DNA of 64,000 nt. Origin: a virus. The stretch is taken from positions 40,075 through 104,074 of the IMG/VR virus record IMGVR_UViG_3300045119_000180; one strand, 5' to 3'. Below the pieces are notes generated by a model, which ran no database searches, was not told where the DNA came from, and saw nothing but the letters and a program-made list of their open reading frames with translations. Of this stretch, positions 18,816-64,000 are shown one piece after another. Each line of letters begins with the position of its first letter. Position 1 is the stretch's first letter. Position numbers and translations under genes: made by a program.

Positions 18816-18823
18816 AGGAGATT

Positions 18824-24141: not shown

Positions 24142-24359
24142 TATACTCAATATTTTTCGTCTTGTTTTGGTTAATATGTTATTTTCTTTCGTTCGGGTCG
24201 ATAGTCGCATATTTTGACGATCAGGATGGTGAATGGCCGGGTACAACTAAACGATACGCACTGGCAGTTGCGTGCTTGTTTAGTCTTTTCGGCCCGTTCA
24301 GTTTGTTTGTTATGTGGGTTCACGGAGATCTTTTTAAACACGGTTGGCGGCTGATATGA
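24138..24359 (+). CDS. Small two-TM membrane protein
   Basis: 73 aa, two hydrophobic segments; ATGA overlaps. Confidence 0.55.
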   Translation: MIYSIFFVLFWLICYFLSFGSIVAYFDDQDGEWPGTTKRYALAVACLFSLFGPFSLFVMWVHGDLFKHGWRLI

Positions 24360-25402: not shown

Positions 25403-26093
25403 AATCTTTGCTGACGGCGCCGATAAAAAGACGATTCTTGAACTGGCTAACAATCCTTTGATCCGTGGCCTGACGACCAATCCAACATTGATGCGCAAGG
25501 CCGGCATTAAGGACTATAAAGCGTTCTGCAAGGATCTTTTGCCCGCAGTCAGCCATCTGCCTATTTCCTTCGAAGTCTTTGAAGACAGCCCGTTGTTGAT
25601 CTACCACCAAGCCTTGGAGATTGCTTCGTGGGGCAGTAATGTCTACGTCAAAATCCCAGTAACAAATACTCAAAGACGCGAGATGTATCCGATTATTAAC
25701 CAACTCAGCCGAGAGGGTGTCAAGGTTAACGTCACAGCGATTATGACTCTTGACCAGGTTCTGGATTCTGCAGAAGCGCTGAGCCATTCAACGCCAAGTT
25801 ACATTTCGGTCTTCGCCGGTCGAATCGCGGATACCGGCAGGGATCCCATTCCGCGGATGGCTAAAGCGCTTAAGATCATCCGCGATATCAGCCCGCAGAC
25901 GGAATTGATCTGGGCCAGCCCTCGTGAAGTATTAAATATTGTTCAAGCCGATGAAATTGGCTGTGACATCATAACGGCTACGAAAGACATCCTGGATAAG
26001 CTGCCGCTTCTAGGTAAGAACCTTGATGACTATAGTCTCGACACCGTTAAGATGTTTTATAAAGATGCCCAAGAGTCCGGGTATAAGCTATGA
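25392..26093 (+). CDS. tal: Transaldolase (TalC/FSA short type)
   Basis: IFAD, GLTTNPTL, VYVKIP, VNVT, SVFAGRIAD, WASPR. Confidence 0.85.
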   Translation: MDIKIFADGADKKTILELANNPLIRGLTTNPTLMRKAGIKDYKAFCKDLLPAVSHLPISFEVFEDSPLLIYHQALEIASWGSNVYVKIPVTNTQRREMYPIINQLSREGVKVNVTAIMTLDQVLDSAEALSHSTPSYISVFAGRIADTGRDPIPRMAKALKIIRDISPQTELIWASPREVLNIVQADEIGCDIITATKDILDKLPLLGKNLDDYSLDTVKMFYKDAQESGYKL

Positions 26094-26905
26094 TTACTAC
26101 GATGCTTCAAGGGGGCATGAGTAATCAACAATTCCAATATGCGATGGGCTACGCTCGTGCCAAGGATCTAGGAGTCGAGTTGGAGTTGGACATCACTCTT
26201 CTGCAGAATGACAGGATGCGGAAATACTCAATGGGTCTGTGGGCCGGAGTTAAAGAGAATTTGACGTTTGGTAAGCGGTCGACAGTTAATGAAAGGCAGA
26301 TGCCTTACGATATAGATTTGGTGACGGACATTAAAGACGGCGATGTATTACGTGGATATTTTCAGGATGAGAGGTATTTTAAGCAGTATCGCAAAGAACT
26401 GTTGGAGATATTTCGCCCGAAGCAAATGCTATCTGATCGAGGGTTTGAAACAGTAAAGAAGATTTATCAAAAAGGGCACCAAAGTACTTTTCTTACTGTA
26501 CGCCGAACGGACTATCTTAATTCAGACTATCACGGTGTTCTGGACATGGCGTACTATTTAGAAGCTTGCCGGATAGTGGCTGAGCACGTTCCGCCATACT
26601 TCTTCGTGTTTTCTGATGAGCCCGAATGGTGCAAGAAGAATTTTCAAATCCCATATCCTTTCGAAGTAGTAGGAACGTATGACCAGACCAATCACGATCA
26701 TCTAGGCCGTGAAGACGAAGACTTGTGGCTGATGAGCCGCTGTAAAAACGCTGTGCTAGCAAACTCCTCGTTTTCATTCTGGGGTGCTTGGATGTCTCCT
26801 TACGATACAGAGAACCGCATGGTAGTTGGTCCTAAGAAATGGTTTGCCAACGCACCAGGGGTCGACTCTAGCGAAGTTATTCCGAAACGGTGGACGGCGA
26901 TATGA
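26090..26905 (+). CDS. GT11 alpha-1,2-fucosyltransferase-like glycosyltransferase
   Basis: GGMSNQQFQYA, GYFQDERYF, VRRTDY, VFSDE..W, ANSSFSFWGAW. Confidence 0.9.
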   Translation: MITTMLQGGMSNQQFQYAMGYARAKDLGVELELDITLLQNDRMRKYSMGLWAGVKENLTFGKRSTVNERQMPYDIDLVTDIKDGDVLRGYFQDERYFKQYRKELLEIFRPKQMLSDRGFETVKKIYQKGHQSTFLTVRRTDYLNSDYHGVLDMAYYLEACRIVAEHVPPYFFVFSDEPEWCKKNFQIPYPFEVVGTYDQTNHDHLGREDEDLWLMSRCKNAVLANSSFSFWGAWMSPYDTENRMVVGPKKWFANAPGVDSSEVIPKRWTAI

Positions 26906-27528
26906 GTTTTTACGATTTCCCTAAGCATCTTCTGGATCTACAGGCTAAACAGCACGAACGATATTGGCACGATGCCGGCAATTATATGCTTATCGGTCAA
27001 TTCAAGTTAGATCACGATAGTGTAGTTATAGATGTCGGAGGCTATAAGGGTAATTTTACCGCATCTATTCTCGATAAGTATAATTGTATAGTTGATGTAT
27101 ACGAGCCGGTTAAAACTTTTGCGGAAGACATCGAAAAACGCTTTTACGATAATAAATGGGTTACAGTTCACAATTATGCCTTAGAAGATCGCGACTATAC
27201 TGTTCCGATAGCCGGCATGGACGAAGGCAGCAGTATATTTTTTCCTTGCGATAAAGACGCCGAGAAAGTTGAAGTCCGCGATGTCGTTAAGGAGATATAT
27301 GGCGATGCGGATCTTCTAGCGCTGAACGGCGAGGGCTGCGAGTATCCGGTTCTGGAGCGGTTAATTGAAACCGGTAAGATTAAGGATATTAAAAACATTT
27401 TAGTTCAGTTTCATATCTTTGTCCCAGGTGCTGAAAATCGCCGTAATAAAATTAGAGAAGAATTAAACAAGACGCACAAGGAAATGTTCTGCTACGATTT
27501 CTGCTGGGAGGCCTGGACACTTAAATGA
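26902..27528 (+). CDS. FkbM-family methyltransferase
   Basis: VIDVGGYKG, YEP, NGEGCEY, VQFH. Confidence 0.85.
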   Translation: MSFYDFPKHLLDLQAKQHERYWHDAGNYMLIGQFKLDHDSVVIDVGGYKGNFTASILDKYNCIVDVYEPVKTFAEDIEKRFYDNKWVTVHNYALEDRDYTVPIAGMDEGSSIFFPCDKDAEKVEVRDVVKEIYGDADLLALNGEGCEYPVLERLIETGKIKDIKNILVQFHIFVPGAENRRNKIREELNKTHKEMFCYDFCWEAWTLK

Positions 27529-49700: not shown

Positions 49701-50195
49701 ATTTGACGACGTTATAACAGTAAATACGCCGTTGTTATTAGGATTAGTAAATCCAGAAATTCTAACCTTTAATCCTTGAATGTCATTCGTAACGGCACCG
49801 AAAGATCCAGAATACGCAACCTGGCCGCCGGAAGAATTCGCTACGGATGTAACTGGATAAGCTAACGAAGACGTATCAATGATTAAACGAATCGTTCCGT
49901 CAGTCAGTTGGAAGCTATAGCTGCGAAGCGGCAAAGTCGGATAAACAGCCGTGGACAGTTGAGTCAAGCCGGGACGACGTTGCAGAGTTAACCTGTTAGT
50001 TAATTCTACATTTAGTCCCTGCCACAACGCGTCCGGGCGTCCTCCGTAGAATCTTGACGTATATATGTCGCTGGGGTCGTGGAGGACATTTCTCTGCGTG
50101 TACAGCCCCGTGAATGACCGGTCAATAAACAACGGTACATATTTTGGAGACTTGTTTGGCTGCGCCCCCGACTGCTGCAAAAGGTTCTGAGACAT
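46722..50195 (-). CDS. Probable tail nozzle/stabilisation protein with inserted Trp-rich repeats
   Basis: 1157 aa, L.RRPG near N-terminus, beta-propeller-like C-terminus, RHLQIKVDF end; follows the adaptor genes. Confidence 0.55.
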   Translation of the reverse strand: MSQNLLQQSGAQPNKSPKYVPLFIDRSFTGLYTQRNVLHDPSDIYTSRFYGGRPDALWQGLNVELTNRLTLQRRPGLTQLSTAVYPTLPLRSYSFQLTDGTIRLIIDTSSLAYPVTSVANSSGGQVAYSGSFGAVTNDIQGLKVRISGFTNPNNNGVFTVITSSNTSVVVNNPNAQTETATASANTAGGVYWDQQNGTTVLLFAKGFDVNGHNAGQSYFQGVAGTLYVGDGVETWKYTPLNTNLPAGAAASTWNWGIVAPTKQPSVTVVPSGSAATQWVANTVWSTMGLIYDSATNTTQQLNSVNATGVNSTQLGTTGSGNPVWAGVGGATIDGSVTWTNRGPIVLWTASTLYQNGSSGGTLASPCIIYDPATKACYYNANGAGLSGTNYPKFKPGAGQTTSDHQVKWAYLGQHGLPGIWQKSHVYATENAGNADTSSISEPIGLANGLPTNQTVFWQVVTTGGTSSSSYTSPKWNTPAGQTTGGDGDMIWLSLGSDQWVANTSYFAWTASGSIFSAIRDSNGNFQVAIQTGTSKSGSHPTWATAYGDITTDGTVIWTCVGTAMTWAASTQWFLPTPGFSPPSSASPYGGASVVDSNNDVEFVINSGLGGGSTPSWAGIGGTTTDGAATWYNLEAHVAQSLSWTNGYVYAYSFKARSLTDFYTVDVAGTSNPPVPPGLNTPLPFPTGSETGVISTASPVFTITGSNAGAVNTISGFGSTDPQVDTIVIWRSADGGGPSNMFELTEIPAPQPIGGVAQPWSFKDFLPDLPTNVFPGLNELIQAPIDDTNDPPPNDFLPMAYNYQRIWGARDDEVPFSGGPDVITGNPNEAFNPSDSIPFLAPVTRLVKTPQGLVTFLTDSIEIIAGGPLTSSFYSVTLAPGMGLLSFNALDVYAGEIYFFASDNQLRLINPSLSVSLAGFPLGDQFANLPSSGVSDTTWNPRNVYVAVHQNGIDNCVFVADGSTGWYRLNPHQIPGAAQGPEPIWSPFAQVASHIGGCLMVQSVETTPGIKKLLVGSATSDQRIYYRDLTVFTDNGFTYDANFTMGSITLCHPGQLALLKFLEFDFSKNFGIKPTVSYLLNEISGTFTPFVQDPVPDPPSLYGTATAPSSYNPSRYYFLGNASLARCRHLQIKVDFGQSSIGDEVLTATIFGRLMIET

Positions 50196-50848
50196 TACGC
50201 AGCCTCTTCTTTTTCGATCATGAGAGACAAAGCTATATCTGTATTCCGATAATCGATTTCTTTGGCGTGCTTAGAACTATTACAGCCGCCCCTGCCACCT
50301 AACATCGGATGACAGAGAGGTTGGATATTTTCAATGGTATTTGGACCGCCTAAAGAGATTGGTTTAACATGATCCGGTACGAGCTTAAGATTAATACTAA
50401 GAAGGTGTTGTTCAGATCTTCCGCAACACACGCAACAATAATTATATTTCTTACACAAGTCTCTAAATTCTTTAAAAGAAAAAGACCCGCTAACCAAAGC
50501 TAATCTGGCACGGTAATCATGTTTGCTCTTCATACAAAGAGCCTTAGCTTTTCTGGGGTGCAACCGCCTCCACTCCCGACTAGCGGCAGCTTTTTCTTCT
50601 CTATGCTTGTTATTGTATGCAAGACTTCTAGCCTTGGCCGCCGCTATATTTCTTAAGTAACTCTCTCTTTTCAATCGAGCATATCGTATTGGATGCGCTT
50701 CTCTACGATCTTTATTTCTTTTTCTAATTTTTTCTTTTTGCTCTTCAGAGTAGTTAGACATCCTTAAGAGGACTTTCTCTCTGTTTTTATAGTAATAGCG
50801 CAGAGCCTCTTCTCGATGTTTTAAAACAGCTTTAGATGGTCGTCCCAT
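50195..50848 (-). CDS. HNH endonuclease
   Basis: CVCCG...DHVKPISLGG.N.IENIQPLC...CNSSK. Confidence 0.9.
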   Translation of the reverse strand: MGRPSKAVLKHREEALRYYYKNREKVLLRMSNYSEEQKEKIRKRNKDRREAHPIRYARLKRESYLRNIAAAKARSLAYNNKHREEKAAASREWRRLHPRKAKALCMKSKHDYRARLALVSGSFSFKEFRDLCKKYNYCCVCCGRSEQHLLSINLKLVPDHVKPISLGGPNTIENIQPLCHPMLGGRGGCNSSKHAKEIDYRNTDIALSLMIEKEEAA

Positions 50849-51564
50849 TAAATCCCGCGGGCCTGATTCGCTTGCTGCGTACGCAATTGATTCGCTAGCA
50901 TCTGACTATCTCTTGACCAATACTGCATTAGAAATTGATCTTTCTGCATCTCTGTCAACCCTTCAGCCTTTGCTAAAAGAGTCGCGATACCACGTTGACG
51001 ATATTGATTCGCACGAGCGTCGTCTACTACCGCCATTGCCTCGCCAACGAATAAATTGTTATAAATATCGAGATATTGATCTGGTATGGTCCAACTTTGA
51101 GAAGTTGCTGTAAACGGTAAAACCAGCTTTTGATAGGTTAAAAGAACTGTATATGTTTGGTCTGGAATCCCCATAAAACGCAACGTTACGCTTGAGCCGT
51201 AAGAAACAAAATTGACCGAAATAGCATTCGGACGGCCCTTTTTATTAGCATTGGCTTTACCTAGTGCCGCAGTATTATAAACATCTAAAACTTCAAAAAC
51301 ATTTCCACTCGTGTCAGTCAAAGTAGCTTTCTCTAGAAAACTAAAATCTGTCAACAAGATCGTATAATCTTGGTTAGAAGAATTGATAGTTAACGAATTA
51401 TTTTCATTCCTATTCCACCCCCAAGTCATAGGGGCATTTAAAATAGTATTCTGAATTTCGTTGGCAATCGATATAGCAGGTTCGTTTCCCGTACCAACTG
51501 TTAACGGAGAATACTGTATATATGTCAACGCATAGTTGACAGATTGCTGTAATGAATATGCCAT
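50848..51564 (-). CDS. Probable head-tail adaptor protein
   Basis: W.WN, GRP, PDQTY...Y, IPDQY pattern of podovirus adaptors. Confidence 0.5.
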   Translation of the reverse strand: MAYSLQQSVNYALTYIQYSPLTVGTGNEPAISIANEIQNTILNAPMTWGWNRNENNSLTINSSNQDYTILLTDFSFLEKATLTDTSGNVFEVLDVYNTAALGKANANKKGRPNAISVNFVSYGSSVTLRFMGIPDQTYTVLLTYQKLVLPFTATSQSWTIPDQYLDIYNNLFVGEAMAVVDDARANQYRQRGIATLLAKAEGLTEMQKDQFLMQYWSRDSQMLANQLRTQQANQARGI

Positions 51565-52649
51565 TAGAATCCTGACCCTGGAAGATTAAACGGATATCCC
51601 GAACCGGGCCAACGGCTAATACCGCGGCCTTGACGCCCCATGATACTTCTCTCGGGGCTAAAGGAATTCTCTTCTAATTCTCGATCTTCTCTTGCACGAA
51701 GATCATTTAAACCAGCTAGCCACATCTTCCACTCATCCGCAAATTTCGCACGGACCTTAGCTTCAGGCGAATAACGATACGCCTGTGCTACGCAGCCCAT
51801 ACGGAATACCGGCTCGTAGCGATCTGGCAACGGAGCAAGCGTTTGGCTTAACGACGTAAACTGTACCGGCGGCATCTGACCAACCAGGTTAAACTGCCAG
51901 ACGTTGCCAGTTTGACTAGGCACTGGCAGGATGCGATAGCCAACGCCTGCGGGATCTACAACTGTCCAGATTGTCGACGCACCTGCGCCAGCTACGGTAG
52001 TCCCTGGTAAGGCACCAACAGCGGCCAATGGCGCGGTAGTTCCTTCGGTGCCATATTGAGTAAGCAAAAGGAGATTGCCGTTAGCATCCTCAATCTGAGT
52101 AATCGGGTTGCTAGGCATTGCCGCGGCCGTAGTCGGATTAGTATAAACTGACCCTGCGACAGGATTGTTGCCTAGCGAGCCAGTTCCAACGTTGCCTGCT
52201 CCCCATGTGCCGAAGTACAGGGTAGAATTAGGAAACCAGTTAACCAAAAACAAAGGATCGCTTGTAGCGGTATTGAAGAACGAACCGCTGGCTTGCGGTA
52301 GTTGTCGACCGCATTCAACTGCGCGGAAGGGTTTAGGAATCGAAGTATCGCTAATATCAAAGACTGCTCCTCTTTCAAGCCATTCAAGGTTATAAATCGA
52401 TGCGCCGCTAGGATAAATTCCAGCGTAATCCTGCTGGTAGCTGTTGGCATACCACACAGGCAGAACGATTTCATTCCATTTATGCGGGAAGTCGACCGCA
52501 CATATGGCGTTCATTACGTCCGTAGCGATCGTAACCATCGGCTCGTTAGAATAGCCGCCGACGTTAAAGATCGGCGCTATTTCACCGAACGGACGAATCC
52601 TATCTAAAACATTTTGTACAGTCGTGTTACTTTGGCCTAGTGTTGGCAT
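51564..52649 (-). CDS. Second adaptor-like virion protein
   Basis: HKWN, QQDY, PVP, PLPDRY; same layout as the next gene plus an insertion. Confidence 0.45.
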   Translation of the reverse strand: MPTLGQSNTTVQNVLDRIRPFGEIAPIFNVGGYSNEPMVTIATDVMNAICAVDFPHKWNEIVLPVWYANSYQQDYAGIYPSGASIYNLEWLERGAVFDISDTSIPKPFRAVECGRQLPQASGSFFNTATSDPLFLVNWFPNSTLYFGTWGAGNVGTGSLGNNPVAGSVYTNPTTAAAMPSNPITQIEDANGNLLLLTQYGTEGTTAPLAAVGALPGTTVAGAGASTIWTVVDPAGVGYRILPVPSQTGNVWQFNLVGQMPPVQFTSLSQTLAPLPDRYEPVFRMGCVAQAYRYSPEAKVRAKFADEWKMWLAGLNDLRAREDRELEENSFSPERSIMGRQGRGISRWPGSGYPFNLPGSGF

Positions 52650-52662
52650 TTTTACCTTTTAA

Positions 52663-55281
52663 TTATTGAAGAGTGCAACTAGACCCTTGACGAATCGTAA
52701 GCGTTCCAGTTCCTTGTCCCGATGCCTGTAATTGAACCGTACCCGCATTTGCGCCGTTTACTAGACCCATGTCAATATGCGCCATTTCATTTGTTGCGGT
52801 CGTAACCGTGGCACCTACGGGGTTTAATGCGCTGGAAAAAGCCGTAGCTGCCGCGCTCGCAGTAGTCGTTGCTGTAATTGCACTAACCATGTTAATTGCA
52901 ACGGAAGTTGGGGAAGATGGTCCGGTGATCTGAAACTCCGGTCCAGTCGTGGCAGCAGATGCACTCCAAACAATAGAACAATGCATTGTGTAATTAGTGT
53001 TCGCCGCAACGGGAAATGAAAGATAGGGAATGCTGGTAAATGATGCAGCACCGCCAGCGTTTGTATAGTCCGCAACCGTCAGAATAGCCTTCTGAGGTAT
53101 GCCAAAAGTGCTGTCTGCATCGTAAATCGTGTCTGTAGCATGCAAGAGAGGGAAACTTCCGCCTGTCCAATTCGTTAGACCAGTGGCATTAGCGGCATCT
53201 GTAGCTATACCAATTCCAGGATAGCCACCAGTGATGGCAGCATCTGTTACTGGGTTAGTGGCTAGATTCTTGTCAATGCTGCCGTTCCGAAGGCCGTACA
53301 ACCAAGCACCTATGTGACGAAGCTCAATCGTATCACCAGCGTTACAACCAACTGCGGAAGTCTGCGTTGACAAACCCGTAAAGGAACCCGCCACGAATTT
53401 GCCAATGCCTGAACCTTTCGCTGCCACGTGTCCACAATAGTATATATATTCAGTACCTGCCGTTGTTGACATATTTGTAGCTACAACAGCTGCGGAACTG
53501 GCATTCGAGTCTATATTTGCAACCGTAACCCTGGAAAATTGATCATTGGCTGGAGGAGAAGACGATACAAAGGCATTGTAATTAGTTTGCGCAGCTCCGT
53601 TAGTTGCAGTGTTAGAGGTTATGTTTACTATGTTGCTGGTCCCGTCTCCAAGAACTGTCCAGCCCAAACCAAGAACCGTCCTTCCGTTTGCCGAAGAGAA
53701 TACATCTGATATAGGGGCTTGAACCGTCTGCCAGATGGTTCCGCCTATCGGGGATATCAGCCCTTTGTTGTAACCAGCAAAGCAAGCGTAAATGCAATTT
53801 CCGGATATCAGTAGACCTTGCGTGGAAGTAACACCGAGTGATACTTGGGCAGACGAAGAAGCATTACCGTTTAGCATCACGTTTGAAATCGATGCAGTGG
53901 AATTACCTGCCTGTTGCATAAAATTGGTCAAGTGACCAGTACCAATCTGTACCAAGTTATCTGTAATAGACGCACCATCAACGTCCGTAGAGCTACCATT
54001 AGCCCCCCATTGGATCGCGGCGTTGACTCCACTTGCCACACAGCCTTCGCTATCAAGTTCGTTATCTGAAAGTCTGTGGCTTCCGCCTTGCAATCTGACT
54101 GCTACGGCAATGTTCCCTATGTTGTTGTTGTCTATGCTTCCGAACCAGCCGCCATCAACAATTCCCTGGCTGGCACAAAAGGAACCGCTTCTTCCGCCAA
54201 TCGTATTGTGAGAAAAGAATATCGTATTTTCCCCTACCGTAGCCCCTGAAACGTTAGCGAAACAGCGCCCTGTCGTCGCATCGCCATTGTTCCAATGGTT
54301 GTAAGAAACCGTACCTTCGAAAACAAAATCATCGAACTGGATCGCATAATTCGTGCAACTTCCCAACGTCGCGTTACCGGCTCCGAAATTAAAAAAATTC
54401 GTATTCGTGATGACCGTGTTCCCAACTGCGTTCTTAATTTCAATACCTGCAACAGTCAAACTCGCTCCACCCAGAAACGTGCCACCATCCAACCTGTAAA
54501 CACCGCCGTGCGTTCCGTCTCCAAATTGAATAAGGTTCGCAGATGAGTTAGTTCCGGCATCAAGACTAGCATTAAGATGAATAGTTGCTGCTATACCAAC
54601 CGCTGAACCCGTCGGATTAAATATAAGTTGACAAGTAGACAAAAGATACGCTTTGCCTGTTCCAGAACCATTGATAAAAACTTGTACCGCTCCGGGGCCG
54701 GCATAGGCATTAATACTAGCCATAAATGCTGTTGTAGCAGAACCGCAGTTGTTAGTTGAATCGTCATCTGTCCACTGCAAACAATTAGTCGCCGAATTGC
54801 AATTTGCGTTTTGAATTACGAACACGCTAGATCCGAGACCTACACCGGTAGGTCCGTTACCGCCACCAGCACTACCCGAGCCTCTACTGGCACTAGCAGT
54901 AGAGGCTTGAATAGTTACAACGGCGTTTGCTGTTAAAGCAGAAGCCCTGACTCGGACTCGATTTAATCCGGAAACGTTGACAGACCATACACCAGTGGCC
55001 GTCGTACTTGTTACGGCAGTACCTGTCGCGGCTGGGATAGCTCCCAGGGCAACCCAAGTACTTCCGTCTACTGTAGCTTCGAACTGAAGCGTACCGGAAA
55101 AGCTACTTCCGGAGACGTTGATAGATACCCCGCCTGTGTTTTTTGCTAAATCCAATATGACACAATTAGTCGCCGTAGAACAATCTGTTCCTGACGATGA
55201 AATAGTGCCGGTAGCGAAATTCTGTTGCGCAAAAACAGGCAAAGCGGTAATTAAAAGCAAAAATAATACTACTTTTCGCAT
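52663..55281 (-). CDS. Fibre/spike-like beta-helix protein with Sec signal peptide
   Basis: MRKVVLFLLLITALPVFA-Q; GTLQFEATVDGSTW..RVRVR module, beta-helix ladders, Cys pairs; AGGAG SD. Confidence 0.65.
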   Translation of the reverse strand: MRKVVLFLLLITALPVFAQQNFATGTISSSGTDCSTATNCVILDLAKNTGGVSINVSGSSFSGTLQFEATVDGSTWVALGAIPAATGTAVTSTTATGVWSVNVSGLNRVRVRASALTANAVVTIQASTASASRGSGSAGGGNGPTGVGLGSSVFVIQNANCNSATNCLQWTDDDSTNNCGSATTAFMASINAYAGPGAVQVFINGSGTGKAYLLSTCQLIFNPTGSAVGIAATIHLNASLDAGTNSSANLIQFGDGTHGGVYRLDGGTFLGGASLTVAGIEIKNAVGNTVITNTNFFNFGAGNATLGSCTNYAIQFDDFVFEGTVSYNHWNNGDATTGRCFANVSGATVGENTIFFSHNTIGGRSGSFCASQGIVDGGWFGSIDNNNIGNIAVAVRLQGGSHRLSDNELDSEGCVASGVNAAIQWGANGSSTDVDGASITDNLVQIGTGHLTNFMQQAGNSTASISNVMLNGNASSSAQVSLGVTSTQGLLISGNCIYACFAGYNKGLISPIGGTIWQTVQAPISDVFSSANGRTVLGLGWTVLGDGTSNIVNITSNTATNGAAQTNYNAFVSSSPPANDQFSRVTVANIDSNASSAAVVATNMSTTAGTEYIYYCGHVAAKGSGIGKFVAGSFTGLSTQTSAVGCNAGDTIELRHIGAWLYGLRNGSIDKNLATNPVTDAAITGGYPGIGIATDAANATGLTNWTGGSFPLLHATDTIYDADSTFGIPQKAILTVADYTNAGGAASFTSIPYLSFPVAANTNYTMHCSIVWSASAATTGPEFQITGPSSPTSVAINMVSAITATTTASAAATAFSSALNPVGATVTTATNEMAHIDMGLVNGANAGTVQLQASGQGTGTLTIRQGSSCTLQ

Positions 55282-55294
55282 TACTGTGATTCTC

Positions 55295-58200
55295 CTAATT
55301 AATAATCGTATACGAAAAACACGCGGGATTAGTTGTCGGGGCCGAAGGAACCGTAATTGTAAAACTGGTCGCAGCTACGCGAGCTGAAACAGTCGGTTGA
55401 ACAGGAGTAGTATTACAAGTCACCGATAACGCCGTTCCCAAAGAAGAATCAAACGTCAATTGAATCTGACTATTAGCCGTTACCGCCGTCGTGTTGACAG
55501 TCACAGTAGTAGCGGAAGCCGCGACAACTACGAAGCCTGACGGTGCGGCTGCACAAACCGCCGGCGCCGCAGCGTTAGCACAAGCCGTAACCGTTGAGAA
55601 AGCTATAAGTGCGTTAGTGCAAGTAGGCGACGTATTCCTGGTTAAAGTAGAAACGAACTTACCTGACGAGCAAGCTCCGACGCCAGAATACGCGCTGACC
55701 AACGCCGCATCAGCGATAGTAGTAAATGACGGATTGCTTGCTGCTCCGGCTGATACTAAAGGTAGTCCGGCTGTACCTGGACCAATGCCAGTTATAGTTG
55801 TTGGACTGGCCCAAACACCAGTTTGAAATTGTGCTGGACTGCCGCTGGTAGATACATTACCGTTAACTGGTGGAACAGCCCACGTACCATCACCACGCCA
55901 GAAAGTCGCGCTAGTTGCGCTCGTTCCACTATTAAGGTTTCCTACTGGCAAATTACCAGTTACGCCCGTACCCAAACTAATCGCAGGAATCTGGGCCGAA
56001 ACTAATCCGCAATATGACGGAGTAGCCGTCGAGCCCGTGCAGTTGCCGAATACGGTATTCGCCCCAGCTGTAGAAAGACTAAAGCTTAAAGCCGGCGTCG
56101 ACGTAGACGTAGCTACGGACGTCGTAAACAACGGACTAAGAGTGCCAGCGGACATAGACGTCACGGTTCCGACTCCTGCGGTACAATCTATATAAATTCC
56201 TGCTGTTCCACTTGCGCATATAGGATGGGTATTAGTAATTGACCCTGTAATTAGCGGCAAAACGGCTGAAGCTAGAGGATCAGGCATCGTAACCGCTCTA
56301 TTAGCAGCCAAACTTGCCGATGAGATAGTAGTTGAAAAAGCACCTTTTCTTATGCCCACGCCATCAACGTTGATAGGATGGCCGGTAACATTACATATAG
56401 TTCCGGCAGGGCAGTTAGTATCAATAGAATTGCTAGATGAAATGAATTCTAGTACTTCATTATCAGACATCTGTCCAGCGGTTATATAATACATCACCGG
56501 ACCGTACAACGTAGGTCCATGAGTAGTATCTATAACTCCTGTCATACAAGTCGAACCAGAGCCCGTTCCGCCAACAAATTTAATTGCTCTCCAAAGGTAT
56601 TTCCAGTCTCCGTCTCCAGTTTGCAAACCATTGTTATAATAATCATTCGAATATGCTGGAAAACTAATGCTTTGACAAGTTGGAATTAAATAAACACTAG
56701 TAACAGGTGCCCAATTACCACCTTTTACCCAAACACCTTCTGCAATCCAGTCTCCTGCGACCGGACTGATATTAAGAATAGGCGCCATATAAACTTGAGC
56801 TAATCCAGCAGACGTAACTGATGCCGCACCTGTTCCACCAAAAGGATCTGCTAACCCTGTAGTTACTGTCAAAGATCCTGTTGCCGTTGTCCAACTCGAC
56901 GGATTAGAAAACGCCTTGTTGACTAAACGAGTTGAAACCAACCCGTCAATTCGCCGAGCTACGTCTGTCTCGCCAACTAGATAATTTAAATTCACACCGT
57001 ACTGCTGCAATCGTAGCGGACTGACTGTATTACTACTTCCAAACGGGTTTAGTACAACCGCCGGACCTGCTACGCCGGTATTTACAGCCACTGGAGCGCC
57101 GTAATTGATGTTTGTACCGTCGTTCTGAACTGAAGCAACATTGTTAGGACAATCAGCTTGAACAACATTATCAACGGTAAGATTGGTTTGTTGCGGCCAA
57201 CTAGTGAACCACACGACCGGGGCGCAATTCGGGCCGCTTGACTCCTCAATAGTATTTGATACGGACAACCCTCCGCCGCTGGACCCCGGGATAAGTTTGA
57301 TGCCGCCGTCGTCTAAATTAGCATGATCAATATAAATAAGACCAGTGCCTTTACCTTGCGAGCCATCAAATAACATAGCTGCAGCATTATTAGCCGTAGC
57401 TCCGTTCGTCCCGCCCGTATTGCCTGAGCATCCGAAATCATAAAAATATAGCCAATATTCCCATCCTACAACATCCGTGCAAGGGCCGTTCGTCCCGGTT
57501 TGGGTTATAAATGCGTCAACGTTATCAAACGTCATTTCTACCGAATTACAAGTACTGTCGCGAAGATTGTTACTACACTCTCCGATGACTATACCGCGGG
57601 CGGGGAAGCCGAGTGAAAAACTCAGATTCTGAAATCTCAATCCATATACAGCAGACAACCATACAGCCGGATGATTCCTGTCAACGGCATTGCCCCCGAA
57701 CACCTTGGCTAACGGAGCATGCCCATTAGGGCTGCCTACAACATCGCCTATACCGATGAAATCAATGCTGCAAGGATTACATTTTAGCCAGCCTGTCGGC
57801 AAACTGTTATAATTCGGGTCGTTCGGCCCCATAAGCCAAAGACCTGCGCCTGCGGTAGGATTAGTTTGTGAAAACGTGCCGATATAAATTGTTCCGTTAC
57901 CGGCAGTTTTCGTACCGCAATTTCCTAAGGGCAAAGAACACTCAGCTGAATAAACAGTCTTCTTCGCTGTACCCCAACTAAGACCGTCGTTACTATCAGA
58001 GCAGGGAGATCCACCGTTACAGGTAACGGCTACGAATTGAATGCTCGTACTCGTTGCCGGCTTAATAGCTGCATTAGCAGCGCTGGCATTTAAGATCCAA
58101 CTGCCGGAATCGCAAGTATAAAAATTGCCGCTAAGATCGTCTGTATAAATAGAGCCAGCAACACAAGGATTCGTCGGACTACCCGTGCCGTGAATAACGT

Positions 58201-58411
58201 TTGTGGCATTTCCGGAATTAAACCAACTACCTGCGTTACAACTATAAAGATTGCCCGTTGTATCGTCAGTGTACAAAGTTCCGGCATTACAAGGATTAAC
58301 TGGAACACCGATGCCATGAATTACATTCGAACCAGGAAAAGGGTTGATCTGAGCACTGGCAAGAGGATGATATATAAACAACAAAAGAAATAGAAAGAAT
58401 AGTTTTCTCAT
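55295..58411 (-). CDS. Fibre/spike-like protein with Sec signal peptide
   Basis: MRKLFFLFLLLFIYHPLASA-Q; two HG.G.P.NPC.AG..YTDD..GN.Y.C..GSW repeats, SDSNDGLSW.TAK, FWRGDGTW, GTVTS fibre motifs. Confidence 0.65.
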   Translation of the reverse strand: MRKLFFLFLLLFIYHPLASAQINPFPGSNVIHGIGVPVNPCNAGTLYTDDTTGNLYSCNAGSWFNSGNATNVIHGTGSPTNPCVAGSIYTDDLSGNFYTCDSGSWILNASAANAAIKPATSTSIQFVAVTCNGGSPCSDSNDGLSWGTAKKTVYSAECSLPLGNCGTKTAGNGTIYIGTFSQTNPTAGAGLWLMGPNDPNYNSLPTGWLKCNPCSIDFIGIGDVVGSPNGHAPLAKVFGGNAVDRNHPAVWLSAVYGLRFQNLSFSLGFPARGIVIGECSNNLRDSTCNSVEMTFDNVDAFITQTGTNGPCTDVVGWEYWLYFYDFGCSGNTGGTNGATANNAAAMLFDGSQGKGTGLIYIDHANLDDGGIKLIPGSSGGGLSVSNTIEESSGPNCAPVVWFTSWPQQTNLTVDNVVQADCPNNVASVQNDGTNINYGAPVAVNTGVAGPAVVLNPFGSSNTVSPLRLQQYGVNLNYLVGETDVARRIDGLVSTRLVNKAFSNPSSWTTATGSLTVTTGLADPFGGTGAASVTSAGLAQVYMAPILNISPVAGDWIAEGVWVKGGNWAPVTSVYLIPTCQSISFPAYSNDYYNNGLQTGDGDWKYLWRAIKFVGGTGSGSTCMTGVIDTTHGPTLYGPVMYYITAGQMSDNEVLEFISSSNSIDTNCPAGTICNVTGHPINVDGVGIRKGAFSTTISSASLAANRAVTMPDPLASAVLPLITGSITNTHPICASGTAGIYIDCTAGVGTVTSMSAGTLSPLFTTSVATSTSTPALSFSLSTAGANTVFGNCTGSTATPSYCGLVSAQIPAISLGTGVTGNLPVGNLNSGTSATSATFWRGDGTWAVPPVNGNVSTSGSPAQFQTGVWASPTTITGIGPGTAGLPLVSAGAASNPSFTTIADAALVSAYSGVGACSSGKFVSTLTRNTSPTCTNALIAFSTVTACANAAAPAVCAAAPSGFVVVAASATTVTVNTTAVTANSQIQLTFDSSLGTALSVTCNTTPVQPTVSARVAATSFTITVPSAPTTNPACFSYTIIN

Positions 58412-59469
58412 TAACCCAAGTACTCCAACCTTATTCGCAATGCGTAAGCGGAGCCTACGCCGCCCGTAACTGTTGTAGCGTAAGTAATATTTTGGCTAAC
58501 GGCAGAATAAAATGTTCCGGAAAGAGACGATGACTCGCCAGGAGTGCTTAAAGACATCGGACTGCCGGAGATTAAACCAGCCAAAGTAACGCCGTTGTTC
58601 CAACCGATCGCTATTGATACACCGCCAGCCGCGCCGGCAGTAGTACAAATCAGATCGACTGATACTCTATAAATACCGGCTGCGAATGGGCTCGTGGCAT
58701 AAAGTAAGCTCGTCGCTATAGATGCCGTTTGAGCAGTAAGATTTACCGCCGCTACAACATCTGTACCGCCGCCACCGCCTCCGCCTGACGTACCAAAATA
58801 GGCTATAGGCGTTTGAGTAGGAGCGGAAAGAGGATTAAAAGCTACTGTCAAACCGGCTGTAACAAAGTCAACGCCTTCTTCTTGAACCAAGCCGCCAACC
58901 GTAATAGCTATAGTACCGGTCGGTGCGGTAGGAAGAAGAAAGGTAGTGTTTACGCCGTCAGCCGTGCCAACAAGAGGAAACGGCAAACTGAAATCCGTAC
59001 CAGAGCCACCGCCGGTTAATGCCCCGCACTGGACCAAAAAGTAGTTCGTATTATCCGAAAATACTATGCCGCCTTGGTTGCTACTAAAAGTAAATGACGA
59101 ACTAAATCCGTTAAGAAGATTTCCGTTAGGGGAAACAACCAACGGTCCCGGACCTATGTTTAAAAAGAACGCCGTCCATTTATTAGGCGCATTTGCTGGA
59201 AGACTTAACGTCACTACCGTCGGGCTATTGAAAACTAACAGCGTTCCAGCGTCACCTGAATTTGCAGTATAATTCGTTGTAAGCTGTTGAACCCCGCCAA
59301 TTCCAGCTCCACCGCCGCCGCCGCTTCCCGTTAGAAAGTTACCCTGCAGGAAACCTTGATAATCAATCCAGGAGAAGATTCGACCGCTATTCTCTTCTAT
59401 AAGCTGAAGAAAGTCGCGGTGAGCCTCGGTAGTCCAGACGTTCTGGGCTACTTTCGTTGGGTTAGCCAT
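58411..59469 (-). CDS. Tail fibre/decoration protein
   Basis: NYTA...D, TLSLP, DGVNTTF.L, GLVQEEGVDF; Gly linkers. Confidence 0.55.
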   Translation of the reverse strand: MANPTKVAQNVWTTEAHRDFLQLIEENSGRIFSWIDYQGFLQGNFLTGSGGGGGAGIGGVQQLTTNYTANSGDAGTLLVFNSPTVVTLSLPANAPNKWTAFFLNIGPGPLVVSPNGNLLNGFSSSFTFSSNQGGIVFSDNTNYFLVQCGALTGGGSGTDFSLPFPLVGTADGVNTTFLLPTAPTGTIAITVGGLVQEEGVDFVTAGLTVAFNPLSAPTQTPIAYFGTSGGGGGGGTDVVAAVNLTAQTASIATSLLYATSPFAAGIYRVSVDLICTTAGAAGGVSIAIGWNNGVTLAGLISGSPMSLSTPGESSSLSGTFYSAVSQNITYATTVTGGVGSAYALRIRLEYLG

Positions 59470-59485
59470 ATAGTCCTATCAAACT

Positions 59486-62400
59486 TTAAGGGTGCATAAA
59501 TACTGTTCTAGCGGGCGAGTGAACCGACGGGTTAGATGCGATAGTATAAACTGCAACTACCGGAGCACTATCTAGATAACCTTGTGCATCTCCGATAGCC
59601 GTTAATGTAATAGTAGAAGAAACCGGAATTGAACTAGTATATCTAAAGCCGTGAACGCAATTACCGTTGCCATCAGCTGTAGGAGTTGTTCCGTCGTTCG
59701 TATAGCAAATAGTAGATCCCGGGGTTAAATCAGTAATCGTAACAGTCTGTGCCGACGTATAAGTACCAGCCACGGGATTAAATACTGGGCTAGATGCCGT
59801 TTGGCCAATAATATAACTGGCGGTATTTGTTGCGCTATTAAAATAACCTGACGCCGTTCCAACGACTGTAAGCGTTTCAGATACTGAAACGGAAACAGGG
59901 CTGGAGTATGTCAACGTTGCCGGGTTAGAAAGCGTACAAACACCCGCGCCATTTGTTGTAGGCGTAGTATTGTTCGTAGTGTAACAAAGAACGGCACCGG
60001 TCGTTGTAGAAGACATCGTAATAGATTGCGCCGTTGTATAAGGTCCTGCTGCAGGAGAAAAGAAAATATTAGCTACTGATTGACCAATAATGTACGTAGC
60101 CGAACCGACTCCACTGTCTACATTGCCGGAATCACTCGCTATAGCTTTAAGCACTAAAGACGACGAAACCGTAACAGCAGTTGAATAGGTAGTTCCGTTT
60201 ATGCAATTTCCATTGCCGTCAGCAGTAGGTGTAGAATTATCTGTTGTATAACAAATAGTGGCCGTAAGATCCGTATCGTTAATCGTTACGTTTTGTCCGC
60301 TAGTATACGGCCCGCCCGGAGGAGAAAAAGTTGGGGGATCCAGAACAGATCCAATATCATATATAGATGAAGCAATCGGACTATCAACGAATCCTGACTG
60401 CGTTGATATCGCAGTAAGAGTTTCGGAGACATTAACGGCGACAGGACCAGAATAAACTATAGTTGAAGGATTGGTAGTGGTACACGTACCAGCGCCGTTG
60501 GTAGTAGGATTACTTCCGTCTGTTGTATAACAAATAACAGGGCTAGGACTGTTAGTAGACGAAATCGTAACCGATTGTGGCGTTGAGTAACTTCCTGCAA
60601 AAGGAGAAAATGTAGGTGCGGTAGTACCGGCAGTAATTGTATACGACAGTTCCGTCATACGAATTGCATCGGCATAGCCTGGAGCAGTAGCTTCGGTTCT
60701 GAAAAATGTCGTATTACTAGATCGTGGTACGGTGCCGCCATTTGCCAATGTCGTTCCGTTGCGACATACACCACCGCCGCCAGTTTCGTTTCCGCTACCC
60801 GCAGGAGTGTTGCCCGTAACGCTATAGCAAATTGTCGCTCCCGGCGTAGAAGAGCTGAAAACAATATTCTGTGTTCCCGTATAAGTTCCCTCGTTAGGAG
60901 TAGCCGTTGGTGTAGCAGTCACACCTTTAACGCCGACTCCGTATAGCGGAATCTTGTAAGTATTGCTACCAACTGGGATGTTCAAAAAAGTGTTCGGAGT
61001 AGTCGGCAAGCCACCGTAAGCCACAATCGCGTTGGCACCGGCGGTCGGAGTGAATGTAACGCTTACCGTACAAGTCGCGCCTACCGCGATAGTAGCACCA
61101 CAACTACTTCCCGATATGGCAAATCTTGATGCGTCTGTACCGGTGATGGTTCGTGCGCCAAGAGATAACGAACTAGCTGGGGTCGTAGGATTCGCTGGAT
61201 TCGATAGCGTTATAATCTGAGGTGTAGATGTTGTTCCCTGCGTTTGGTTATAAACTCCTACGCTACCAGGGAAAACATTAAATATCGGGTTACGTTGTGC
61301 AACGTAGTTCAAATTCCCCCAGAAATAATGTTGACTAAAGACCTTTCCCGTACTTCCGCTGCCAATAGCAAATGCGCCAGTCTGATTTGCGGTCTTGTAA
61401 CATCCACCGGGAATCTGTGCCTGCCCTCCAGTATTTGAAGTGCTACCATTACCCGTTGTGAATGTTGCATTCAGTCCGAAGGCGTAGTCGCCTTCTTGCT
61501 GGTAGATAGGTAGTCCAGAATATTGATAGAGCCACGCATATATCGGAATTATTTCGCTATATTCTTCATTCGTGCAAGTCGTTCCTGTAGGTTGTCCTTG
61601 TGTCGTAATATTGTTATTCCCAAAGGCTGACTCCGTGACGTAGTGCCAATTACCTACGTTCTCTTTCTGCCAATCGCTATAAAGAAAATCGGCACATGAT
61701 TTAAGAATTGCCGGAATTCGCGGGTCAGGACTACCGGGGTTGATGACATTGTAATACTCGACCAAGTTCCTCATAGAAAGACCAAGCATAAACTCTTCCC
61801 ATGAGAAACTAAGATCCTGTGTAACGCACGCCTGTTCCATCTGAGAGATTATATGGTCCTTGTTATAATCCATAAACGCGGCCATTGGTGTAACCGTCGC
61901 CCCGGTAGAAGAATTGGTCCATATCGACGTTACCGGGAAAATAGAAGCCGTGCCGCAGGCTGCGCCGCTACATCCAGGACCGTTAACCGCCGCTGAATAA
62001 GTAAATGTAGTAGCCGTGAAGTTAAGAACGTTATGCAATCCATTATAAAACGCTGGGCCACCGGAGATCAGTATTTCCTGACTTCGATTTACATTAAAAT
62101 ACGCAGGAGGCATAGAAGCAAATAAAGTGCTCTGGACCGTTATGTTTCCAGCAGACACATTAGCCGGGATTGAGGTAATCGATACTGGTTGATCCAAATT
62201 CATCGCTACGGCATGGATGTAACCGCTTTCCGTATACGCAATCTCTCTCAAATTAGTAAGGCTGTTATAGCTTCCAGCTGTCGATATATACGGGCTTTGC
62301 GGCAATGTAGTCATCTGAGTTACTTCTTGCTTGTCTAGTGCCTGTCCGCCTAGCCCTCCCCCATTTAAGTAATCTTGATAGAATCCTCGGCTAGCCTCGA

Positions 62401-64000
62401 GGATTGTAGGCACAACAACTCCCAATACCGTCTTATCGCGGTAAAGCTCAGCCACGTTTTCACGGCATTGAGACCATTGCAAATGCGTTCCGGCAGCAGC
62501 AATAGCTTCTCCACCCCAATTAGCCAATAGCGAATCGGCGCCGAACCAAGCCTCTACACCGTCGTAGAACCACGAGGCATTAGTGGTTGCGAAACCAACT
62601 CCAGTTAGATTAGAGTTATTATTAACACGAAGTTGTATAGTTGGAGAGCTACCGTTGTCCTGAGCGCATATCCAATATTGTTGACCGAAGGCAGAGACGG
62701 CGTTTACATATGGCGCCTGATTGGGAATTGTCGGATAGCTTGTAGGTGCCGCATGAGGAAGAATTGCGCTCGTTACGCCGAAAGGAGCGTTCGCGGGATC
62801 TACGATAAGCGGCCAATTGATCGTGTTCGTTGTGCCATTCCCCGTCATCGTTATAACTAGCGTGTAAGTTCCTGGGGGCGTGCTTGCACTGGTGACGAAT
62901 TGGATCTCTTTATTTCCAAAATTGCTTATGCTGTTGGTGTCGTTACAGACTCCCCCTGAAGATTGAGTCAGCGTATCCCCGATGCTGCTGCTGTCGATAG
63001 CATTATTCGTGCATCCGGTAGATGTTGTTTTGGTGTTGGACCCCATCCAGTTAAATTGCGTACCGGTAGTAGGTTCTCCAGTTAAAGCAATGGTCAGAGA
63101 ATGGCTTGCTGGTGTTAGATTTGCGAGATTTGTTAAATCTAGAGTAATATATCCGGAATATCCTGCCGTAACATGATGATTTCCAAAAGCATCTATTTTA
63201 TATTTGGCGGCAGTCGTAGACGTCGGACTTGGCGGAGTAAGTTTCGCTCCAGCTCCACCTGTATAGTTTGGGGCAAATTTCATTCTAGAAGCCGAACCAC
63301 AAACTACCCCTATATTAGGCCCGGATTGAACCACTGGATATGAAACAATTCCAAATGAGGTGCTTGTTGGCCCAGGGATTATGCCTTGAACAACAATAAA
63401 ATGCGAAGTCGCTCCACTAATATCTTGCAAAGGAGAAAACAGGAACGGCCTTGAATTTCTATCTCCGCCGACTTCGGCCATTGCGTTAGTTGGAAGACTC
63501 GTCTGGTAAAATATCTTAAGATAAGCAAGGCCGTCAGCACTACCAATCCCGTTCGTCCCGTCCAATCCACTCAACCCGTAAAAGAATCCTCCGGTTGTTA
63601 TTTGGCCGGGGTTAGTAGCCTGTAAATAACTAATTTGATTTCCACTTACAGCACTGATTGTAAAGTTTCCGTTGAATGCTCCGGGGACCGCCCCAACTAC
63701 CGTAAAGTTTTCTCCCACTGCGATATGGGTTGTGAAATTTAGTGTCACAGTGGTTGTGCCACTAGCCCAACTAGCTGTGCCAGCCGTTTCCAAGTACGGA
63801 ATAAACCCCGGCTGGCCGCCCTCTAGATTATTAGCTGTTTGAACGCACGCGGCGTCGATTACGTATGTATTAGTTACTACAGGGCTGTTTGTGAATCCCG
63901 CTTCTGTAGCGAGAGCCTTGATTGTCGTATTGCTGGTTACAGTAACAGCTGCAATAGAGCTTTCTGGAACTTGGTATTGTGTGAATCCAGACGTAGTAGG
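59486..64000 (-). CDS. Large modular virion/surface protein with chitobiase/beta-hexosaminidase C-terminal-type Fn3-like repeats (5' end outside the window)
   Basis: Frame open to 64000; five P.FSP..G.Y...Q.V.I...ICYT.D...P repeats, an Ig/ASH-like CGATIAVGATCTVSVTFTP domain, central helical domain. Confidence 0.75.
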   Translation of the reverse strand, partial: PTTSGFTQYQVPESSIAAVTVTSNTTIKALATEAGFTNSPVVTNTYVIDAACVQTANNLEGGQPGFIPYLETAGTASWASGTTTVTLNFTTHIAVGENFTVVGAVPGAFNGNFTISAVSGNQISYLQATNPGQITTGGFFYGLSGLDGTNGIGSADGLAYLKIFYQTSLPTNAMAEVGGDRNSRPFLFSPLQDISGATSHFIVVQGIIPGPTSTSFGIVSYPVVQSGPNIGVVCGSASRMKFAPNYTGGAGAKLTPPSPTSTTAAKYKIDAFGNHHVTAGYSGYITLDLTNLANLTPASHSLTIALTGEPTTGTQFNWMGSNTKTTSTGCTNNAIDSSSIGDTLTQSSGGVCNDTNSISNFGNKEIQFVTSASTPPGTYTLVITMTGNGTTNTINWPLIVDPANAPFGVTSAILPHAAPTSYPTIPNQAPYVNAVSAFGQQYWICAQDNGSSPTIQLRVNNNSNLTGVGFATTNASWFYDGVEAWFGADSLLANWGGEAIAAAGTHLQWSQCRENVAELYRDKTVLGVVVPTILEASRGFYQDYLNGGGLGGQALDKQEVTQMTTLPQSPYISTAGSYNSLTNLREIAYTESGYIHAVAMNLDQPVSITSIPANVSAGNITVQSTLFASMPPAYFNVNRSQEILISGGPAFYNGLHNVLNFTATTFTYSAAVNGPGCSGAACGTASIFPVTSIWTNSSTGATVTPMAAFMDYNKDHIISQMEQACVTQDLSFSWEEFMLGLSMRNLVEYYNVINPGSPDPRIPAILKSCADFLYSDWQKENVGNWHYVTESAFGNNNITTQGQPTGTTCTNEEYSEIIPIYAWLYQYSGLPIYQQEGDYAFGLNATFTTGNGSTSNTGGQAQIPGGCYKTANQTGAFAIGSGSTGKVFSQHYFWGNLNYVAQRNPIFNVFPGSVGVYNQTQGTTSTPQIITLSNPANPTTPASSLSLGARTITGTDASRFAISGSSCGATIAVGATCTVSVTFTPTAGANAIVAYGGLPTTPNTFLNIPVGSNTYKIPLYGVGVKGVTATPTATPNEGTYTGTQNIVFSSSTPGATICYSVTGNTPAGSGNETGGGGVCRNGTTLANGGTVPRSSNTTFFRTEATAPGYADAIRMTELSYTITAGTTAPTFSPFAGSYSTPQSVTISSTNSPSPVICYTTDGSNPTTNGAGTCTTTNPSTIVYSGPVAVNVSETLTAISTQSGFVDSPIASSIYDIGSVLDPPTFSPPGGPYTSGQNVTINDTDLTATICYTTDNSTPTADGNGNCINGTTYSTAVTVSSSLVLKAIASDSGNVDSGVGSATYIIGQSVANIFFSPAAGPYTTAQSITMSSTTTGAVLCYTTNNTTPTTNGAGVCTLSNPATLTYSSPVSVSVSETLTVVGTASGYFNSATNTASYIIGQTASSPVFNPVAGTYTSAQTVTITDLTPGSTICYTNDGTTPTADGNGNCVHGFRYTSSIPVSSTITLTAIGDAQGYLDSAPVVAVYTIASNPSVHSPARTVFMHP

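Follow-up and report, generated by a model that had tools for sequence, protein, structure and literature searches.

Assembly of tailed phages is taught as a purely cytoplasmic process, and their receptor-binding proteins are assumed to lack signal peptides. Among described systems, a tailspike-like beta-helix with an export signal is known from Pantoea stewartii WceF (PDB 6tgf; PMC7949094), a structurally solved enzyme of the stewartan cluster that is exported via a twin-arginine translocation (Tat) signal, and Sec signals predicted to expose an N-terminal Gln, according to the Bacteroidetes Q-rule, have been reported for genes of Porphyromonas phages, where they were read as an adaptation to secretion by the host (Matrishin et al. 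2023, PMC10367356). Here we analyzed a 64,000-nucleotide stretch of viral DNA (hereafter the window), which comprises bases 40075-104074 of the 104,074-bp IMG/VR record IMGVR_UViG_3300045119_000180, a phage genome rated complete, and we focused on two late genes encoding proteins of 872 and 1038 amino acids (aa), hereafter P0001 and P0002. The source is probably an uncultured soil phage whose likely host belongs to soil Acidobacteriota of the Acidoferrales/Acidiferrales group.

P0001 and P0002 are best explained as members of a group of five large late proteins of this phage that are of spike or fibre type and directed at glycans. Judging from their sequences, they would quite probably be exported via Sec, cleaved before Gln, and folded with disulfides in the periplasm. 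Export and extracytoplasmic folding is the best reading because of conserved signals, paired cysteines, tailspike-like folds encoded in the virion module, and a phage-encoded Skp/OmpH chaperone. We infer translocation, cleavage, disulfide formation, enzyme activity, and the role of Skp from these features.

Predicted signal peptides and their conservation

The open reading frame (ORF) of P0001 occupies window positions 52663-55281 and that of P0002 positions 55295-58411, both on the minus strand. The ATG of P0001 has AGGAG 9 nt upstream and lies 13 nt beyond the stop codon of P0002, whose own ATG overlaps the stop codon of the upstream 352-aa gene (TAATG). Considering this tight packing, both start codons are firm, and the initial annotation of this DNA was right in placing two ORFs with textbook signals at these coordinates among structural genes. 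In addition, the ORF listing takes the first start codon after a stop, which makes longer in-frame starts impossible. The predicted signal peptide of P0001 (residues 1-18; 55228-55281, minus strand) consists of MRK, a 14-residue uncharged hydrophobic core, and the cleavage site VFA-QQ, and that of P0002 (residues 1-20; 58352-58411, minus strand) of MRK, an uncharged hydrophobic core, and ASA-Q; AlphaFold2 models them as helices at residues 2-13 and 4-13, respectively. Both N-termini show the charged n-region, the uncharged core of 7-15 residues, and the small residues at positions -3 and -1 that characterize Sec signals cut by signal peptidase I. A twin arginine as in Tat signals is not present in P0002, in which the n-region is MRK.

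All signal calls were made with a rule-based script and by inspection rather than with a trained predictor. By this heuristic, seven of the 55 genome ORFs of at least 190 aa carry a signal, including all five large late proteins rich in Ser/Thr and Cys (P0001, P0002, and proteins of 2320, 446, and 2546 aa), whose genes jointly cover approximately 21.7 kb, or approximately 21% of the genome. The N-termini of the 2320-aa and 446-aa proteins are of the same kind as those of P0001 and P0002. The 2546-aa protein has a lipoprotein-like N-terminus ending in ...LFAAC and contains 53 Cys.

The initial annotation had named conservation of the signals in homologs as a check on its proposal, and the signals do prove to be widely kept, which, together with their scarcity among the other large ORFs of the genome, goes beyond what chance would give. 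With a strict heuristic, a signal was found in 40 of 54 P0002 homologs, several of the remainder being mis-started, and in approximately 21 of 24 members of a further homolog set. A phmmer search with P0001 against 1.84 billion representatives gave 2268 matches at E <= 0.001, and 92 full-length proteins were taken from the best 150 of them; 80 of these 92 relatives have a signal by the heuristic, and 34 of the 80 (from the same best 150 of 2268 matches) have Gln at position +1. Gln is also the commonest residue after the predicted cleavage site within this phage (6/7 of its type-I-like signals) and, by a crude heuristic, at chromosomal loci of Acidobacteriota (11/55 at +1; L018-L046). The Bacteroidetes Q-rule may thus extend to this Acidobacteriota host group. 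As for C-terminal sorting domains, neither the Por_Secre_tail domain of the type IX secretion system (TIGR04183) nor PEP-CTERM was matched on P0001 or P0002 in Pfam or NCBIfam; the two proteins end in ...SSCTLQ and ...SYTIIN.

Paired cysteines and amino acid composition

P0001 contains 16 and P0002 30 Cys, and the closely spaced motifs that had first drawn attention to them are all present, namely CSTATNC (residues 34-40) and CNSATNC (161-167) in P0001 and CNGGSPC (131-137) in P0002. Cys makes up 1.3-2.9% of the five signal-bearing proteins and 0-0.8% of the signal-less portal, scaffold, adaptor-like, 1157-aa, and presumed internal proteins. In the predicted mature forms of the five, Cys counts are all even (12, 30, 16, 30, and 52, the last without the lipobox Cys), and even counts were likewise found in 69 of the 80 signal-bearing relatives of P0001 obtained from the best 150 of 2268 matches. 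Moreover, cysteines of P0002 tend to be retained or lost together among its homologs: for the pair 279/288, both residues are present in 42 homologs, one in 1, and neither in 9, and the corresponding numbers are 44, 1, and 8 for 667/673, 36, 1, and 17 for 311/328, and 23, 0, and 19 for 211/214. Conserved pairs in P0001 are 161/167, 179/217, 309/340, 369/414, and 496/500. Paired and evenly counted cysteines of this kind are a signature that predicts folding in an oxidising compartment.

Both proteins are also rich in Ser and Thr, as the initial annotation had stated (22% in each, compared with approximately 9-13% in enzymes of the phage). The same annotation had linked the two genes to a heptose/glycosyltransferase cluster (window approximately 15966-27528) and had proposed an undescribed route in which glycosylated appendages are exported for disulfide folding. 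The export and disulfide-folding part of that proposal is in agreement with the signals, paired cysteines, folds, and Skp, but its glycosylation part is not borne out. Signal-less tail proteins of the phage are likewise rich in Ser and Thr, and this composition thus gives no support for glycosylation. Partner genes were looked for in the phage genome and not found: a GT9 heptosyltransferase of the AIDA/TibC type (PF01075), an oligosaccharyltransferase of the Wzy_C/PglL type, and an autotransporter domain are all absent from it. The glycosylation link is unsupported and should carry no weight, the evidence neither refuting nor supporting it.

Tailspike-like folds and domain architecture

According to structure models, P0001 and P0002 are tailspike-like right-handed beta-helices, and Foldseek comparisons of the models with tailspikes gave E values from 4e-9 to 1e-3. 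All domains given below are encoded on the minus strand. In P0001, the signal is followed by an N-terminal beta-sandwich (residues 20-128; 54898-55224), which contains Cys34/Cys40 and was modeled with a predicted local distance difference test score (pLDDT) of approximately 90. Its Foldseek matches were YomS (6i5o; template modeling (TM) score 0.70 by target) and XepA (6i56); we set kinship with these proteins aside as a generic beta-sandwich match. The combination of this domain and the signal is common to proteins with other C-terminal parts (P0076-P0080). A Gly/Ser linker leads to the right-handed beta-helix (residues 150-510; 53752-54834; pLDDT >90), for which Foldseek detected GH87 glucanases, the RbmB lyase, and the tailspikes of Dettilon and CBA120. 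Residues 515-712 (53146-53739) may form a concanavalin/DUF1080-like sandwich, a lead from ESM Atlas structures (TM 0.73-0.77 by target). The C-terminal domain (residues 721-872; 52666-53121) is widespread at the C-termini of viral proteins: most of the 150 best representatives among the 2268 matches of P0001 align to this domain only, and the ESM Atlas clusters that match it are 78-98% viral.

P0002 begins, after its signal, with two repeats of approximately 42 residues (residues 21-117; 58061-58351), each with one Cys pair (41/58 and 83/100) and modeled with low confidence. They are followed by the tailspike-like beta-helix core (residues 118-687; 56351-58060; pLDDT >90), whose Foldseek matches include the Klebsiella K2-2 tailspike, CBA120 TSP4, and Pantoea WceF. 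The acidic residues D139, D198, E390, and D420 of the core are invariant, which would fit an active enzyme. An insertion (residues 688-954; 55550-56350), absent from bacterial homologs as judged by BLAST ranges, carries fibre-repeat units including FWRGDGTW (approximately 808-815). This repeat unit occurs at least four times in the 2320-aa protein and also in fibre-position proteins of the cultured Bradyrhizobium phage ppBjS10J-1 and of a podovirus, neither of which carries a signal. Of the sequence motifs that the initial annotation had taken as marks of phage fibres, FWRGDGTW therefore does occur in proteins at tail-fibre positions, but FEATVDG..W, located in the beta-sandwich N-domain, could not be shown to be a fibre motif. 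The C-terminal beta-sandwich of P0002 (residues 955-1038; 55298-55549; pLDDT >90) resembles K1-lyase_C, with a PF24146 score of 23 bits against a cut-off of 27, and PF24146 is precomputed on P0002 homologs as well. No Pfam or PHROG match to a known particle-binding domain was obtained at the N-terminus of either protein. Among GenBank phages, no homologs of the beta-helix parts were found, the fibre-repeat unit alone being matched, and no solved structure matched either protein by sequence.

Distribution of the two families in bacteria and other phages

The two families differ in where they occur. Among one-genome-per-species contigs, all 29 matches of the P0002 family are from Acidobacteriota, mostly Candidatus Acidoferrales or Acidiferrales. 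The closest chromosomal relative of the P0002 core (locus L037) is 57% identical, and its neighbors encode methyltransferases and glycosyltransferases of families GT4 and GT2, phage genes being absent from the vicinity; several further chromosomal loci with P0002 homologs have similar polysaccharide-cluster neighbors. In a FastTree phylogeny of the core (unrooted and without a support test), P0002 groups with L037 as its sister, and members from viruses are interspersed with those from chromosomes. By sequence, the P0002 core is thus one that has been exchanged between phage and a host polysaccharide-cluster enzyme, in either direction. However, the signal and N-region of P0002 are unlike those of the chromosomal homologs, which means that the signal did not just travel along with the core. 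On the chromosomal side, Acidoferrales (L037, L018, L019, L042, and L045) have tailspike-like beta-helix genes with the conserved hydrophobic N-terminus MLR.FAFGLI... within polysaccharide-synthesis clusters, an arrangement like that of WceF in a phylum whose enzymes of this type have hardly been studied experimentally.

The P0001 family was detected in none of five Acidoferrales genomes and none of 401 Acidobacteriota genomes, both being samples. It was found in seven other viral contigs, in all of which (7/7) the P0001 homolog carries a signal and lies within three to five consecutive signal-bearing, Cys-rich ORFs. These runs are located directly after Cys-free structural genes and ahead of lysis-region genes. 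A 96-kb relative, whose portal is 36% and whose adaptor-like proteins are 32-35% identical to those of our phage, encodes three signal-bearing Cys-rich proteins (829, 643, and 1124 aa), and the same cassette of three genes is found in a complete 64-kb phage (G002), where the proteins have 1522, 441, and 2403 aa and reach 83-84% identity over stretches.

A pair of sister phages (L010 and L055), with core proteins 39-48% identical, shows how the signal may be distributed within one module. The same gene slot holds two signal-less spikes in L010 and four signal-bearing proteins in L055. In one of the L055 proteins, the mature N-domain (...K-AQTTSVSATVNDPTGR...) can be aligned with an L010 spike (M-AQYTLITGTVRDPTGR...), starting at residue 2 of the spike, with 34% identity over 85 residues (E value of 6e-11 pairwise and 5.7e-7 within the set), and the signal-less form in L010 begins at the predicted cleavage site of the L055 form. 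This match was clear both when the N-terminal 200 residues of the two were compared and in a set-wide BLAST; a full-length pairwise comparison had missed it. Considering the alignment and the common slot, the signal is a discrete N-terminal addition to the same spike module.

A phage-encoded Skp/OmpH-like chaperone

Just upstream of the terminase gene and outside the window, the phage genome contains a gene (genome 23344-23934, minus strand) for a 196-aa Skp/OmpH protein with its own signal (...VYG-QG) and a full-length PF03938 domain (77 bits against a cut-off of 32). No relatives of it were found in 50,697 GenBank phage records or by pattern search of IMG/VR, and a literature search yielded no papers on a phage-encoded Skp. 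Besides outer-membrane proteins, Skp is known to hold soluble secretory ones (PMC9638971). A Skp/OmpH of its own fits a phage that would load the periplasm heavily.

Proposed route and alternative explanations

If the predicted signals are used, the five proteins would be made late, alongside the virion genes, carried across the inner membrane by Sec, and cut before Gln by signal peptidase I. They would then fold in the periplasm, where the oxidising machinery of the host would close many short-range disulfides and the Skp/OmpH-like chaperone of the phage would probably help to hold the very large chains, and they would be released together with the particles at lysis. The beta-helix cores most likely bind or cut extracellular polysaccharide of the host, and exchange of the P0002 core with a host polysaccharide-cluster enzyme would give the right specificity.

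Several observations weigh against export, or at least against parts of it. The signal-less sister spike in L010 likewise has paired cysteines, so that such pairs alone are no proof of export. A phage-encoded Dsb-like protein was not found when the genome was searched with PF13462. Skp is absent from five related viral records; we therefore rejected it as an obligatory partner, and its absence from related phages makes it a helper rather than a required component. An alternative is that the proteins are not exported, the N-terminal segment being left over from the capture of genes for secreted proteins of bacteria or else an uncleaved hydrophobic helix, and that they fold and assemble in the cytoplasm as classical tailspikes do, with Cys becoming oxidised only after release. 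The L010 spike and the exchange of the P0002 core with secreted enzymes of bacteria would agree with such a history. However, the signal and N-region of P0002, being unlike those of its bacterial homologs, were not dragged along with the core, and distant phages as well as the phage-only P0001 family have retained the signal, although decay would be expected of a hydrophobic N-terminus that serves no purpose. The phage also carries a periplasmic chaperone. We therefore consider this alternative improbable and the least likely of the explanations examined here.

Given export, the proteins may end up in one of two places. They may never join the particle and instead act as free or envelope-bound factors that, working in the periplasm or at the cell surface up to and during lysis, trim or block host polysaccharide, which would result in receptor destruction, release through the matrix, or superinfection exclusion. 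This is a substantial possibility, somewhat short of an even chance. It agrees with the nearest relatives of P0002 being non-viral enzymes of polysaccharide clusters, with the precedent of WceF, and with the 2546-aa member, which is lipoprotein-like and has the CHB_HEX_C and choice-of-anchor domains typical of surface proteins; the phage also has signal-less, Ser/Thr-rich candidates for virion fibres (the 352-aa protein, with weak leads, and proteins of 613 and 370 aa), as do the complete relatives G002 and G005. On the other hand, lysis frees cytoplasmic enzymes too, and a signal would be required only if the proteins act before lysis or fold with disulfides. A mosaic, fast-changing architecture and equivalence of the slot with signal-less spikes are typical of receptor-binding proteins, and approximately 21% of the genome is a large outlay for accessory factors. 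Alternatively, the exported and disulfide-bonded proteins may be true receptor-binding appendages that join DNA-filled particles built in the cytoplasm only once the holin has opened the inner membrane or the cell has burst, an explanation that seems plausible but against which we would lean. In its favor, the genes occupy the receptor-binding slot between capsid and adaptor genes, L055 and L010 share an N-domain in this slot that bears a signal in the former and none in the latter, the fibre-shaft units of P0002 are shared with signal-less tail fibres of cultured phages, and the P0001 family is seen in viral contigs only (0/401 Acidobacteriota genomes). Purified tailspikes attach to P22 heads in vitro, and T4 particles take up fibres in extracts, and late addition of spikes is therefore biochemically feasible. 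However, no precedent for tailed phages was found in the literature searched, neither P0001 nor P0002 has a recognized particle-binding domain, and the enzyme core of P0002 is closest to non-viral polysaccharide-cluster enzymes. The lipoprotein-like 2546-aa member and the signal-less 352-aa fibre-like protein amid signal-bearing genes also argue against docking, and this phage, G002, and G005 retain signal-less Ser/Thr-rich large proteins as possible virion fibres. The complete two-compartment route, in which Sec, signal peptidase I, periplasmic disulfides, the phage Skp, and docking at the holin breach would act together in this and many similar soil phages, is a tentative proposal that we consider less likely than not; such an assembly route is not described for tailed phages in the literature searched.

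If the proteins are exported, as we think probable, either outcome, secreted factors or particles finished in the periplasm, would be new. In the case of secretion, many soil phages would release batteries of very large polysaccharide-directed enzymes and adhesins during infection, and polysaccharide-rich soil bacteria would be the setting of a new class of surface interaction between phage and host. In the case of docking, particles would be finished in, or after contact with, the periplasm, which would change the view of assembly, of disulfide-stabilized virions, and of the parts played by host Sec, signal peptidase, and Dsb. For annotation, the receptor-binding proteins of such phages would escape any pipeline in which a signal is taken as grounds for setting a protein aside as non-structural. 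The exchange of a host polysaccharide-cluster enzyme seen for P0002 would be a simple route to matched specificity. Cultured phages of Acidobacteriota (Tunturi) exist (PMC11924767), in a paper that mentions neither signals nor virion proteomics, and the question is thus now open to experiment.

Gene order and other features of the genome

The ends of the record share a 127-bp terminal repeat. As 127 is a common assembler word length, we take the record to be an assembly that is circular or circularly permuted and has no true physical ends. The late strand encodes, in order, the large terminase, an SU10-like portal (PF23899, 65 bits), scaffold and capsid genes, the 2320-aa, 446-aa, and 2546-aa proteins, the 352-aa protein, P0002, P0001, two weakly SU10-adaptor-like proteins, an HNH gene, the 1157-aa protein, and more Cys-free proteins. 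The gene for the 2546-aa protein crosses the record ends: its C-terminal 1504 codons lie at window 59486-64000 (minus strand), its N-terminus is encoded outside the window, and closure of the circle joins this part to genome 128-3253 (minus strand) as a single ORF. The protein contains five CHB_HEX_C_1 domains and one choice-of-anchor D domain.

Between this gene and P0002 lies the gene for the 352-aa protein (58411-59469, minus strand), which is signal-less, Cys-poor, translationally coupled to P0002, and a candidate for a small fibre or docking protein of the virion. In the 96-kb relative, its C-terminal end is conserved, and ESM Atlas gave weak leads alone, to T7-tail-fibre-N, DUF4183, and gp53-like viral proteins. 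Directly downstream of P0001 are the two SU10-adaptor-like genes (361 and 238 aa; 50848-52649, minus strand), with PF24175 scores of 17.6 and 25.9 bits, below the cut-off; both proteins are signal-less, have 3 and 0 Cys, and are kept in the 96-kb relative. An HNH endonuclease gene (window 50195-50848, minus strand), one among several free-standing nuclease genes of the late strand, forms an insertion that separates the adaptor-like genes from the 1157-aa tail gene.

Elsewhere in the genome, a papain-family C1 peptidase (PF00112, 51 bits; genome 28211-29026, minus strand) is encoded near a lipoprotein-like 206-aa gene (genome 29528-30148, minus strand). Both genes are kept, with 27-56% identity, in several unrelated phages with signal-bearing spike clusters (G001, G002, L010, L055, and L058), and it is possible that the pair has a role in lysis or processing. 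Two further small proteins with signal peptides are encoded on the plus strand of the window. One is a 123-aa protein (921-1292; ...IYG-QS) with an SprT-like metalloprotease domain (PF10263, 30.5 bits), which could represent a small exported protease encoded in the early region, and the other is a 110-aa protein (15161-15493; ...AKA-QD) without a family match, encoded just upstream of the glycan operon.

Comparison with known systems

P0001 and P0002 share with tailspike depolymerases (such as the Klebsiella K2-2 TSP 8iq5/8iq9, CBA120 TSP3 and TSP4, Dettilon gp208, and the K1 capsule lyase 7w1c) a right-handed parallel beta-helix core, a small C-terminal sandwich (K1-lyase_C-like in P0002), a location in the tail-gene module, and a mosaic modular architecture. 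However, classical tailspikes have no signal, few Cys, and a recognized particle-binding domain, whereas P0001 and P0002 have a predicted Sec signal, 16-30 paired Cys, and no recognized anchor. In the literature searched, we found no description of signal-bearing receptor-binding proteins of tailed phages. The Porphyromonas phage genes mentioned above (PMC10367356) are of unknown function, being read as envelope modifiers with no tail fibre or spike named, and belong to phages of another host phylum. The heptosylated autotransporter adhesins AIDA-I and TibA also differ, in that P0001 and P0002 lack an autotransporter barrel and the phage genome lacks a GT9/BAHT partner.

Two systems of cellular organisms are more similar in architecture. 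P0002 resembles WceF in combining a tailspike-like beta-helix with an N-terminal export signal, and its chromosomal homologs in Acidoferrales share the cluster neighborhood of WceF. It differs from WceF in being phage-encoded, in having a Sec-type signal and an added fibre-repeat insertion, and in that its gene lies in a phage late operon rather than in a polysaccharide cluster. P0001, with its signal, a beta-sandwich of approximately 110 residues, and swappable distal parts, can be likened to the mosaic adhesive trimer (MAT) fibres of Bdellovibrio bacteriovorus (PMC10769870), although the MAT fibres are chromosomal proteins that a predator uses on its own surface, whereas P0001 and P0002 are encoded among the late genes of a phage.

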